NCBI GenBank assembly: GCA_951406725.2
Contig: OX597842.1
Span: forward strand, 31,744,001 to 31,808,000
Direction: 5' to 3'
Source of the DNA: Octopus vulgaris
Lineage: Eukaryota
DNA length: 64,000 nucleotides
Part shown: positions 1 to 17,154 of the stretch, one piece after another
How positions within the stretch are numbered: the stretch's first letter is position 1
How the letters are laid out: every line of letters starts with the position of its first letter
The notes under the pieces: model-generated
Told to the model about the DNA's origin: nothing
Databases searched by the model: none
Seen by the model: the letters and a program-made list of their open reading frames with translations, nothing else
Translations under genes and position numbers: made by a program

Positions 1-1608
1 ATTTCCATTGATCGATTTCCATTTCTGATCCTCACTTGCCTCAACGGGTCTTCACAAGTAGAGTATCGACATGCCACCGGCACTGGTAACACATCTGCAA
101 TTTCCATTGATCGATTTCGATTCTGATCCTCACTTGCCTCAACAGGTCTTCACAAGCAGAGTTTTGTGTCCCAAGAAGGGAAGGTATGCATACATAGGCT
201 GGCTCCATCCCAAGTAGAAGGCCACGGGTTATGGACTCACTTGTCCTGCCGGGTCTTCTCGCGCACAGCACACTTCCATAGGACTCGGTCTCTAGTCATT
301 TCCTCAGTGAGACCTAAAGTTCGAAGGTCGTGCTTCACCACCTCGTCCCAGGTTTTCCTGGGTCTGCCTCTTCCACAGGTTCCCTCAACCGCTAGGGTGT
401 GGCACTTTTTCACACAACTATCTTCATCCATTCTCGCCACATGACCACTACCAGCGCAATCGTCTCTCTTGCACACCACAACTGATGCTTCTTAGGTCCA
501 ACTTTTCTCTCAAGGTACTTACACTCTGTCGATTATGAACACTGACATTACACATCCATCGGAGCATACTGGCTTCATTTCTTGCGAGCTTACGCATATC
601 CTCAGCAGTCACGGCCCATGTTTCACTGCCATGTAGCATGGCTGTTCGTACACACGCATCATACAATCTGCCTTTCACTCTGTGCGAGAGGCCTTTTGTC
701 ACCAGCAGGGGTAAGAGCTCTCTGAACTTTGCCCAAGCTATTCTTACTCTAGCAGTTACACTTTCAGCACACCCGCCCCCGCTGCTGACTTGGTCACCTA
801 GGTAACGGAAACTATCAACTATTTCTAGTTTTTCTCCCTGGAAAGTGACGGAAGTTGGTCTCAGAGCATTTTCAGTGTTTATTGTTCCTGAGCATCTGCC
901 ACATACAAAAACCATCTTCCTAGTTAGCCTTCCTTTGACATTGCTGCACCTCTTATGTGTCCATAGCTTACACTTAGTGCATCTTATAGAGTTTCTACCT
1001 ACACCTTTTCTACAGATCGAGCAGGGCCATCTACCTGAAGGCGTGTGTGATTTGTCTACCTTCCTACTGATTACGACTTTGGTTTTAGCTAGATTGACTC
1101 TGAGGCCCTTCGATTCTAATCCTTGTTTCCACACCTGAAACTTCTCCTCCAGTTCTGATAGCGACTCAGCAATTAGAGCAAGGTCATCAGCATAGAGGAG
1201 CTCCCAAGGGCATCCTGTCTTGAATTCCTCCGTTATTGCCTGGAGGACTATGATAAATAGGAGGGGGCTGAGTACTGAGCCTTGGTGGACCCCTACCTCT
1301 ACCCGGAATTCTTCACTGTACTCGTTTCCAACCCTCACCCTACTAGCAGCGTCCCTATACATGGCCCGCACAGCTCTCACTAACCATTCATCTATCCCTA
1401 GTTTCCTCATTGCCCACCAGATAAGGGATCGGTGGAACCCTGTCGAAGGCTTTCTCCATGTCAACAAAAGCCAGGTACAGGGGCTTATCTTTGGCTAGGT
1501 ATTTCTCCTGCAGCTGCCTTACCAGGAATATAGCATCAGTAGTACTTTACTCTGGCACAAACCCAAACTGCATCTCATCTAAACTAACTCTCTCTCTAAT
1601 TAGTTGGG
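1..1608 (-). mobile_element. 5'-truncated RTE-clade LINE (RT core, PHD-like finger, thumb; 3' UTR runs off the left edge)
   Basis: ORFs 448..1467 and 237..479 contain GVHQGSVLSPLLF, LLYADDL, FRYLGD and RGRPRKTW. Frameshifts near 450 and 1435-1460. The 5' end abuts (TA)n. Nearly identical to 51684-52546. Confidence 0.93.
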
Positions 1609-1907
1609 CTATATATACATATATACATATATATATATATATATACATATATATATATATATACATATATATATACATATGTATATATATACATATATAT
1701 ATATATACATACATACATATATATATATATACATACATATACATATATACATATATATATATACATATATATATATACATATATATATATACATACATAT
1801 ATACATATATATATACATATATATATATATACATACATATATATATACATATATATATATATATATATATATATATATATATATATACATATATATATAT
1901 ATATATA
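1609..1907. repeat. (TA)n/(TACA) compound microsatellite
   Basis: Direct reading. Confidence 0.98.
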
Positions 1908-2252
1908 TAATAATAAATATTAGGGAATAAATCCAAATTTACAGGGAAAAAAATCAGATTTAGGATTAAATCCAATTTTATAGTAAAATATTATAAAATA
2001 TTATTAGAGACAAAACCACTATTTTGCAAAACAAACAAGGAAAGACTTAATCAATACATAAAATTTTAATAAATAGTCAAAAAAACTGCCACTAAAACTG
2101 ATATATTGGAAGTCCACCTGAAGATTGTCGATCAAGACAAGAAACAATTGTAGTGGCGGTTTTTTTGACTATTTATTAAAATTTTATGTATTGATTAAGT
2201 CTTTCCTTGTTTGTTTTGCAAAATAGTGGTTTTGTCTCTAATGATATTTTTT
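1908..2252. mobile_element. Penelope-like pLTR fragment with inverted (fold-back) duplication
   Basis: ~100-bp inverted arms 1995-2094 and 2151-2250 surround a hammerhead motif; (TA)n on both sides. Confidence 0.7.
2114..2156 (+). ncRNA. Minimal type I hammerhead ribozyme (PLE type)
   Basis: ccac-CTGAAGA-ttgtc(gatcaa)gacaa-GAA-ACAATTGT-A-gtgg: stem I ccac/gtgg, stem II ttgtc/gacaa, palindromic stem III, GUA cleavage triplet. Confidence 0.85.
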
Positions 2253-13886: not shown

Positions 13887-16536
13887 TTGATTGATTGATT
13901 GATTGATTGATTCTAGTTTCAGCTTATGAGCTGTGGCCATGCTGGGGCACCGCCATTTGGTGTTGCTACTTGGTTTCACTTCATGGAGGCTTTCTAGCAA
14001 CTGCTATTTGGTGCATGAGAGAGTTCGATGCAGCTGCCCTCATCTGCCCCTCCTGCCGTGAAGTTGGTTCATCTGGGACACCTGACAGGAAGAGATCCAG
14101 CTTCATTTTAAAGACATCTGTATCCACCCCATGCAGGTCTCTCAGGTTCTTCGGGAGGATATTGAAGAGCTGTGGGCCTCGGAAGCCCAGGCTATCACAG
14201 TATCTTGTCCTACATCTTGATGGCAGGTTTGGAGTCCTAGGCACCACGCAGTGGCGCCCAGTTCTGGCATTTGCGTAACTCTCGATGCCAAAGTTCAGGA
14301 CACTTCCCTCCAGGATCTTCCAGATGTATATTATGGCATATCTTTCCCGCCTACGCTCCAGGGAATATAATTTTAATCTCTTGAGTCTTTCCCAGTAGCT
14401 TACATTCTGCATAGAGGCTATCTTCTTTGTGTAGCTTCGTTGGATCGCCTCAAGTTCTGTGATCAACTTGACACTGGATGGTGACCATAGCTGAGAGCAA
14501 TAGTCAAAGTGGCTTAGGACAAGTGTCTTCCAGAGGACCATCATGGTTTCTTGTTCTCTTGTTCTAAAGGTTCTAAGAATCCATCCAGCCAGCCGTCTAC
14601 ATTTCATTGTCAGTTTAGCAACATGTACATGAAAGGTCGCGTCATCACTCATGTGAATACCCAGGTCACGCACTGATTGTGCCTCTGGGATTGCAATCCC
14701 TCCGGGTCCAGTGTATTCATTGGGTATTGCATTCAGTTTTGCATGCTGATAGTATAAAGCTTGAAACTTTCCAGCATTGAACTGCATGCTATTCTTTTCA
14801 GCCCACTTGTATATTTCGTCCAGCTCACATTGCAGGTGTTTAGTGTCCTCAGGGTTCTGTATTGCCTGTGAAACTTTTGTATCATCTGCATAACTTGTGA
14901 TCGTGGCTCTCTGCGTGGCTGAGGGCATGTCTGAGAGGGCCATTATGAACAGTAGTGGTCCCAGAACAGTGCCCTGCGGAACACCGCTCACTATTTGTGT
15001 GTTAATGGAGGTGGCCCCATTGGCTACTACCACCTGACTTCTATCCTTCAGAAAGTCATGAAGCCATTCTCCCAGTTTTCCAACTATGTTGAGATCACGC
15101 AGTTTGTGACATATCATTCCATGATCGACTTTATCAAAGGCCTTTGCAAAGTCGAGATATATCACTTCCACATTTGAGTGGTTGAGCAGCCGTTTCAGCA
15201 CCCAGTCATAGTGTTGTAGGAGCTGAGTTAAACAGCTTCTCCCTGGTCGGAAACCATGTTGGGTGTCGGGCAGCAAGTCATTTTCTTCAAGGAAGGTGAT
15301 CAGCTTCCTTCTGACTATTCGTTCCATGACCTTGCTGATGTGTGAGGTCAGAGAGATAGGTCTATAGTTCTTGGCTTCCGCTCTGCTACCTCCTTTATGA
15401 ATGGGGCATATTTTACCTTCCTTCAGTTTTCCTGGAAGTTTGCCAGCTGCAAGGAAGCTCTGAAAGAGGAACTGCAGTGGTCTTGCTAGGACTCTCTTAC
15501 ATGCTTTTAGGAGGATTGCCGGGAATCCATCGGGGCCAGTAGCTGAGTCTGTTTTCATTTCATCTATAGCCTTGGTTACATCGTCTTCATTTATATCGAT
15601 GTAATCTATCGTCGCCGCCTCTGATTTTATATCTGCAGTGGTAAAAAAGTCAGTTGGATTGGTGATTTGGAGATGCCCAAGGGGTGGAGTGAAAACACTC
15701 TTGAATTGCTCATTCAGTATTTCACTTACCCTCATTGGTTTTCCTGTAAGTGTGCCATCCTTTTCGAGGAGTGGCCCTATTCTACAGTGCACTGTAGCTG
15801 TTTCTTTGGCATACCTGTAGAAAGCTCTGGGGTTAGATTTTATGTTTTCTATAGCCCAGGCTTCTTTGTCTGCTCTTTCTTTTTCATGGGAGAGTTGCAG
15901 ACATTTTTCGATTTCCAACAGTTTTATTTTTAGGCGGGACTTTTCACTGCTTTCAATCTGTTTGTTTAGGCGATTTGAAAATTTCGTACGCCGTCTCATT
16001 AAAATTTTCCTCTCTCTGGGGATTTTGTTCTTGTGTACAGTGGCCTTTCTCTCTGGGACACATTTGTAGCATATGGCTTGCATTACAGACATGAATTGTT
16101 GAAGTTTCACGTCAATGTCTGGCGAGGAGAGACATTCAGGCCAGTTTTGTTTGAGGATCTCTTTCTCAATTTGTTTCCAGTTTGCCTTATGGTAGTTCAA
16201 GCTGGAAAGATTTTGAGGGTTTCTTGTAGGCTGCATGTCCGTGCTCTCTTTTGGCCCGTACATGGTCAGCTCTACCATGTTGTGATCCGAGAGTAGTGTC
16301 GGTGTCACTTTCACATTATGGATGAGATCCATGTCATTTGTGAAGCAGAGATCCAGTGTGTTACCTGCCCTGGTTGGTTGGAGTATTACCTGCTCCATGT
16401 ACAGGGTGTTGATGAGGTTCAGGAGAGACCTCGCCTGTCCTCGTTCACATCTTGTCATTCCTGGGAGAGAAAGGCCCTCGGGCCATCTGACATTGGGCAG
16501 ATTGAAGTCTCCCATAAGAAGCACACCTATGTGTTG
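13887..16536 (-). mobile_element. 5'-truncated APE-RT LINE with uninterrupted ORF2 remainder (~850 codons) and (ATCA)n tail
   Basis: ORF 13981..16992 is open from GDFN (~16510) to the stop. The N-terminal YIYI part is microsatellite. Tail reads (ttga)n on plus at 13887-13912. Confidence 0.94.
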
Positions 16537-17154
16537 TATATATATATATGTATATATATATATATATATATACATATATATATACATATATATATACATA
16601 TATATATACATATATATATACATATATATACATATATATATACATATATATATATACATATATACATATATATATACATATATATATATACATATATATA
16701 TATACATATATATATACATATATATATACATATATATATACATATATATATATATATATATATATATACATATATATACATATATATATATATATACATA
16801 TATATATACATATATATATACATATATATATACATATATATATACATATATATATACATATATATATATATATATATATATATATATACATATACATATA
16901 TATATATATACATATACATATATATATATATATAATATATATATATATATACATATATATATATATACATATACATATATATATATATACATATATATAT
17001 ATATATATATATATATATATACATATATATATATACATATATATATATATATATATATATATATATATATATATATATATATATATATATATATATATAT
17101 ATATATATATATATATATATATATATATATATATATATATATGTATATATATAT
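16537..17154. repeat. (TA)n/(TACA) microsatellite
   Basis: Direct reading. Confidence 0.98.

Follow-up and report, generated by a model that had tools for sequence, protein, structure and literature searches.

Several long interspersed elements (LINEs) with an apurinic/apyrimidinic-type endonuclease (APE) target microsatellites. Passages of PMC3812793 describe Waldo (ACAY), Mino (AC), Kibi (TC) and Koshi (TTC) in these terms, with Dong (TAA) listed alongside. According to passages of three further papers (PMC6007223, PMC13295347, PMC4640811; 2015, 2018, 2026), site-specific APE LINEs are limited to the Tx1 and R1 clades, and passages of the first two give RTE/Bov-B elements a Tn-TA insertion signature. 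Among Penelope-like elements, Naiad and Neptune have (TA)n as their preferred target (passages of PMC8557442). For Octopus vulgaris, 13 recently active CR1 families with 787 insertions are recorded in passages of PMC13282606. Here we analyze a 64,000-nucleotide (nt) stretch of this genome, called the window below (G000:C29:31744001-31808000; about 2.8 Gb of genome were searched), and four APE LINEs in it, E2 to E5, which lie between long (TA)n tracts.

By domain matches, E2-E5 each encode APE and reverse transcriptase (RT), and they represent four families. All four are 5'-truncated members of young, related LINE families whose copies lie in (TA)n microsatellites throughout the genome. We consider it likely that they do so because the endonuclease of their second open reading frame (ORF2) nicks TA repeats and primes reverse transcription there. 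Like Waldo, Mino, Kibi and Koshi, whose endonuclease is thought to pick the target, they lie in a microsatellite in a sequence-specific manner, but their target is palindromic and leaves orientation free, their preference is strong (about 89%) and not tied to a single site, and their lineage looks like the CR1 group, not R1 or Tx1 (compared with passages of PMC3812793). With Naiad and Neptune they share the preference for (TA)n and target duplications that are hard to see, whereas those elements use a GIY-YIG endonuclease and another RT class (passages of PMC8557442). The RTE/Bov-B elements are likewise APE LINEs that end in a microsatellite and show a weak preference related to TA (passages of PMC6007223 and PMC13295347), but the RTEs of this genome are only 27-29% identical to E2-E5, which are far more TA-restricted. 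Together with E6, a full-length member of the same lineage in the window, E2-E5 may be among the active CR1 families of PMC13282606, which are also young and about 4 kb long and for which the cited passages of its main text report no target preference.

The (TA)n preference of the E2-E5 families is real and family-specific. We scored a junction as TA-flanked if (TA)4 started at most 30 nt from it, after the tail, and counted flanks at the 30 best-scoring loci per family and in 20-40 further regions, leaving out the window's own loci for E1-E4. By this rule 104 of 117 3' junctions were TA-flanked (E2 22/29, E3 28/29, E4 28/29, E5 26/30), as were 44 of 51 visible 5' junctions and, in a larger set of copies, 152 of 170, against 6.0% of positions in 20 random 10-kb regions. 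Other E6-family copies adjoin (TA)n at 7 of 8 5' ends. Most copies are thus bordered at either end by a single microsatellite, which was there before them (see below). The tracts they favor are long, with a median of 330 nt on the 3' side and at least 200 nt there in 110 of 175 copies. The (TA)n targeting that a first-pass annotation of the window had suggested therefore holds across the genome.

The control is E9, a CR1-like family with a (TTA)n tail that we found 131 kb from the window start (G000:C29:31874530-31878200, L047/L048). It is 30-35% identical to E5 and E2, as young as the E2-E5 families (median identity 99.4%) and was sampled with the same search design, yet only 2 of 30 of its 3' ends (p=6e-18) and 5 of 19 of its 5' ends are TA-flanked. 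The preference therefore belongs to the E2-E5 lineage. The E9 copy at L047/L048 itself adjoins TA. The contrast between the families argues against selection, generic break capture, microhomology of the tail alone and an assembly effect as its source. Selection would mean that insertion is random and that only copies in harmless TA tracts are kept, as the weaker TA association of short, less harmful relatives (14/41) could suggest; since the equally young and similar-sized E9 is not enriched and the E2-E5 families have diverged by only 0.2-1%, we give this explanation next to no weight.

The array itself is laid out as follows, where C1 denotes a contig with a second copy of much of the window:

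1..1609, minus strand: E1, RTE LINE, 5'-truncated, RVT_1 match
1610..1920: TA tract, TACA 23 : TGTA 1
1911..2251: fold-back piece (self-inverted match) whose hammerhead-like core lies at 2118-2145
2252..2525: TA tract, TACA 22 : TGTA 0
2526..5693, plus strand: E2, APE-RT LINE that begins within the last part of ORF1; tail of its family (TTATTCTAAG)n
5694..6754: TA tract, TACA 70 : TGTA 0; the C1 copy has a fold-back insertion inside it
6755..9831, minus strand: E3, APE-RT LINE with a short 5' inversion at 9718-9835; tail (GTAAAAGA)n
9832..10308: TA tract, TACA 24 : TGTA 0; empty here, while C1 has a full-length E5-family copy at this site
10309..12862, plus strand: E4, APE-RT LINE truncated inside APE; tail (TTTAAGGA)n
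12863..13887: TA tract, TACA 67 : TGTA 0; left half of the tract that E5 divides
13888..16536, minus strand: E5, the youngest of the APE-RT LINEs, which begins within APE and ends in an (AATC)n tail (13886-13912); missing from the C1 copy
16537..17154: TA tract, TACA 33 : TGTA 2; right half of the tract that E5 divides
19086..24543, plus strand: E6, full-length, same lineage as E2-E5, CCCH ORF1, TA at both ends

Much of what the first-pass annotation had read from the letters agrees with these coordinates and with the domain matches: five LINE pieces, one RTE and four APE-RT LINEs, follow one another in the order -,+,-,+,-; the TA tracts at their junctions measure 274-1061 nt (0.27-1.06 kb had been given); TACA interruptions on the plus strand far outnumber TGTA in every tract; the four CR1/L2-like copies come from distinct subfamilies, their ORF2s being 36-72% identical (37-38% for E2 against E3-E5); and ORF lesions are few, E2 and E3 having a stop and a frameshift each (late in E2), E4 a single frameshift and E5 no lesion. 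The array continues for about 10.7 kb upstream of the window, to a total of about 28 kb. This upstream part contains three E5-family pieces, one E2-family piece and another fold-back. E1, whose family has at least 150 copies at 98-100% identity, ends in a (GAT)n tail about 360 nt upstream of the window, which also adjoins TA.

The annotation had further remarked on the alternating orientation of the elements, which the counts do not support as a rule. Among 59 TA-linked neighbor pairs, to which the C1 copy, short RTE-type ends and a small number of possible internal duplications contribute, 35 have the same and 24 the opposite orientation (p=0.19), and within the E2-E5 families alone the ratio is 24 to 17 (p=0.35). 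Upstream of E1 (RTE, -) the LINEs already run -,+,+,-, so that the whole 28 kb reads -,+,+,-,-,+,-,+,-. We therefore reject alternation as a rule; strict alternation of five elements has a chance probability of 1 in 16, and the order in the window is likely due to chance.

That the tracts pre-exist the elements follows from empty sites. The window from 2522 to at least 77520 has an inverted second copy at G000:C1:9446372-9368195, at least 75 kb long and 95-99.7% identical by block, which is either a young duplication or the second haplotype on another contig. It has E3, E4, E6 and the 3' portion of E2, all with the window's junctions, but at the site of E5 it has one unbroken tract of 2644 nt (TACA 132 : TGTA 1), which shows the interruption patterns of both E5 flanks, in order. 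The window's E5 has no private bases in 2618 columns compared with 58 copies (0.12-0.53% in the shared elements), so its insertion is likely later than the split of the two copies. Conversely, C1 has a full-length E5-family copy, giving the order +,-,+,+, in a tract that is empty in the window (9832-10308), and these 477 nt match both flanks of the insertion. C1 likewise lacks the RTE at 25831-28792, which is inserted into a short run of (AT)n within an older RTE fragment; 18 nt of C1 align to both flanks of the inserted RTE.

These sites bear on the idea that a short TATA or ATAT suffices for insertion and that long tracts only grow during or after it, by RT slippage or microsatellite expansion. 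Such growth would fit the many E5 3' flanks that open with long pure TA runs and the related short elements that often adjoin only 4-7 nt of TA. The C1 tract, however, had reached 2644 nt with both flank signatures while still empty, the empty 477-nt tract tells the same story, and polarity is independent of element sense: at other loci the two flanks of an element agree in polarity in 38 of 41 cases, with no relation to the element's orientation (48:50). We consider this explanation very unlikely.

The first-pass annotation had taken the shared TACA polarity as the mark of one ancestral tract that was split repeatedly. For E5 the split is seen directly at the C1 empty site, but polarity alone is no proof of a single ancestral tract, because it is also regional. 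All polarized TA tracts from -96 to -42 kb (L040-L036, 55 kb) carry TACA on the plus strand, and a TGTA run lies at -32 to -22 kb; such runs suggest strand-biased mutation over large domains. The real proof of pre-existing tracts is the empty sites.

The two copies also speak to the concern, raised in the first-pass annotation, that the array is a chimera joined by the assembler through TA tracts. Gaps at about -21.6 kb and 77.5 kb bound the 99-kb contig to which the window belongs, and the C1 copy differs in its left flank and has a longer E2: the join of E1, fold-back and E2 is seen in the window only, where E2 starts later than in C1, and we found no second copy of the DNA left of the array. 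Either this join or the corresponding one in C1 may be a rearrangement or a mis-join. The private changes of E2 that the copies share start at 3432, with none in 2526-3430. Against a chimera, copies about 0.4-1% apart share the E2-E3, E3-E4 and E4-unique junctions, the truncation points and the inversion in E3, they differ by clean insertions, and random joins would not spare E9. Mis-assembly at these three junctions is thus disfavored, and a chimeric array is highly improbable.

We collected copies of the E2-E5 families by protein queries and found at least 150 per family, at 93-100% identity over the last 120 residues. In four runs, contigs X1, X2, X3 and X15 contain the family at high depth, in pieces of about 90 nt, none of which spans a junction. 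For the ORF1 survey, four long copies were fetched per family, and in all four families the longest ones carry ORF1, with Myb/SANT and CCCH matches that are weak and below the Pfam cut-offs. We therefore reject a design without ORF1; E3-E5 do lack it, as had been noticed, but its absence is simply 5' truncation. The related claim that the copies begin at or within APE applies to E4 and E5, which start inside the domain; E3 spans all of it, and E2 starts in the end of ORF1. About 7.2 kb are common to the E3-family copies L176/L177, which points to a long 5' region; part of this region also precedes E4-family copies. The 5' end of E6 resembles that of full-length E5, and the word AAGACGTG, common to the 5' ends of E6 and E2, could possibly be an internal promoter motif.

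All four full ORF2s have an N-terminal APE with its catalytic motifs (Exo_endo_phos_2) and a central RT (RVT_1), and these are their only Pfam matches at E<=0.05. Their best PDB match is L1 ORF2p (E 1e-24); a PDB search with the APE domain alone gave no match, and its fold predicted from the single sequence was unusable (predicted local distance difference test score 34.8). The copies are 5'-truncated with an intact 3' tail, and some show a likely target-site duplication (TSD) whose length is blurred by the repeat, as is typical of APE-type non-LTR (long terminal repeat) elements. Members of the CR1 group have neither RNase H nor a C-terminal zinc-knuckle domain, and end in a 3' stem-loop followed by a short tandem-repeat tail. 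The E2-E5 ORF2s match neither domain, and a hairpin shared by five ends (z -1.1 to -3.0) precedes their tandem tails. The site-specific Tx1 and R1 clades, in turn, carry either a cysteine-histidine domain at the C-terminus of ORF2 or knuckles of the CCHC type in ORF1, and we found no zf-RVT or zf-CCHC match in full copies of the four families. Judged by domain content and these general features, the lineage likely belongs to the CR1 group. The nearest protein relative with a name comes from Argonauta, which makes an octopod host likely. The names of homologues and of Atlas entries gave no clade name for E2-E5, and passages of PMC10294476, PMC4120745, PMC5786205, PMC4758252 and PMC11481361 leave their clade unsettled.

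For the mechanism, what we observe are TA flanks at both ends, family specificity, the splitting of tracts, insertion in either orientation and an intact 3' stem-loop and tail. Of 95 copies, 27 show TSD-like matches with at least one C or G; shuffling gives 5.7 on average and 14 at most. We propose that APE would nick (TA)n, either by reading the sequence or by favoring an easily melted structure, that the RNA tail would pair by 1-3 nt with the nicked end, and that reverse transcription would start at the nick and often stop early. The second-strand cut would then duplicate roughly 15-25 nt of the tract. As the target is palindromic, copies would land in either orientation, and as both halves of a tract would stay targets, long tracts would gather copies in random order and become pile-ups, shared with RTE and Penelope-type elements. 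In our best explanation, the 28-kb array is such a TA pile-up.

Several observations weigh against this proposal or narrow it. The preference is not absolute, as 13 of the 117 3' ends miss the TA rule (though most of these open with TATA, ATAT or a degenerate repeat of TA), and the sample behind this count may include duplicates, since at least two pairs of loci (L118/L119 and L139/L140) look like one insertion each. In unselected DNA, short elements with the lineage's 3' end lie in TA in only 14 of 41 cases, against a background of 12.5%; for E5-type ends the count is 2 of 6, and for RTE-type ends 9 of 26. The TSD matches may also come from higher-order repeats within the tract, and the bias to long tracts could equally reflect DNA structure, nicking by the host or reading of the sequence. 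TA tracts are also crowded with RTE, Penelope-like, Helitron-like and LTR-like pieces, so that part of the effect is a general TA sink. The Tn-TA signature of RTE/Bov-B (passages of PMC6007223 and PMC13295347) likely accounts for the flanks of the E1 family, of which 13 of 29 3' ends are TA-flanked.

Short elements that share the 3' hairpin and tail of E3 are abundant in the random regions (L191-L210) and in the flanks of the window; by this likeness they are likely partner short interspersed elements of E3.

The general sink leads to the alternative that nicks or breaks which the host suffers at long (TA)n, as cruciforms or fragile sites, are captured, with the family bias coming from the RNA tail or ORF1 and not from the endonuclease. 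It would explain why copies lie mostly in long tracts, why unrelated element types share them and why RTEs are enriched too. E9, however, stays at background despite a TA-containing tail; all 117 sampled copies keep their 3' end, though the C-terminal query biases this; TSD-like duplications exist; and some copies lie in tracts of about 13-15 nt per side. We regard such capture as unlikely and, in its generic form, in which the first-pass annotation had offered a break-capturing sink, as disfavored by a sister family that avoids TA. Nicking of (TA)n by the elements' own endonuclease remains the reading we prefer.

Of the other pieces in the array, the fold-back at 1911-2251 had been taken for a Penelope fragment. 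Its hammerhead-like core can be read directly in the sequence, but it has no ORF, and we found neither a Penelope protein nor an Rfam hammerhead match in it; an Rfam search of 1-25000 gave low-complexity matches only, all below the gathering score. A longer member of its family is present in the C1 copy. By its motif, the piece is a putative Penelope-type end fragment. Upstream, a solo-LTR-like 1-kb TG...CA piece and a non-autonomous Helitron-like TC...CTAG piece (L031) lie in TA tracts at about -3083 to -2050 and -955 to -569; both are so labeled by their end motifs. Tandem arrays occur in the window at 17157-18183 (342-nt unit), 19469-19848 (42 nt, inside the 5' region of E6) and 35935-36375 (63 nt, matching an RTE 3' region).

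We found no report of (TA)n-targeting CR1-group LINEs in the literature, although Repbase, most subscription papers and supplements may already hold one. We give about even chances to a broader view, in which an old LINE lineage outside Tx1 and R1, with at least five families and 36-72% ORF2 identity among four of them, has a (TA)n-selecting APE, represents a third origin of target specificity in APE elements and enlarges its landing sites by insertion. If this is true, about 15-25 nt of tract are duplicated every time an element inserts, and two targets are left behind. The alternating order that first drew attention to the array is itself without meaning. What matters is that several active, high-copy families prefer (TA)n while the equally young CR1-like E9 in the same genome does not, a pair that allows a domain-swap test of whether the target is set by APE, ORF1 or the RNA tail. 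The (TA)n preference would explain the dense LINE pile-ups in octopod microsatellites.

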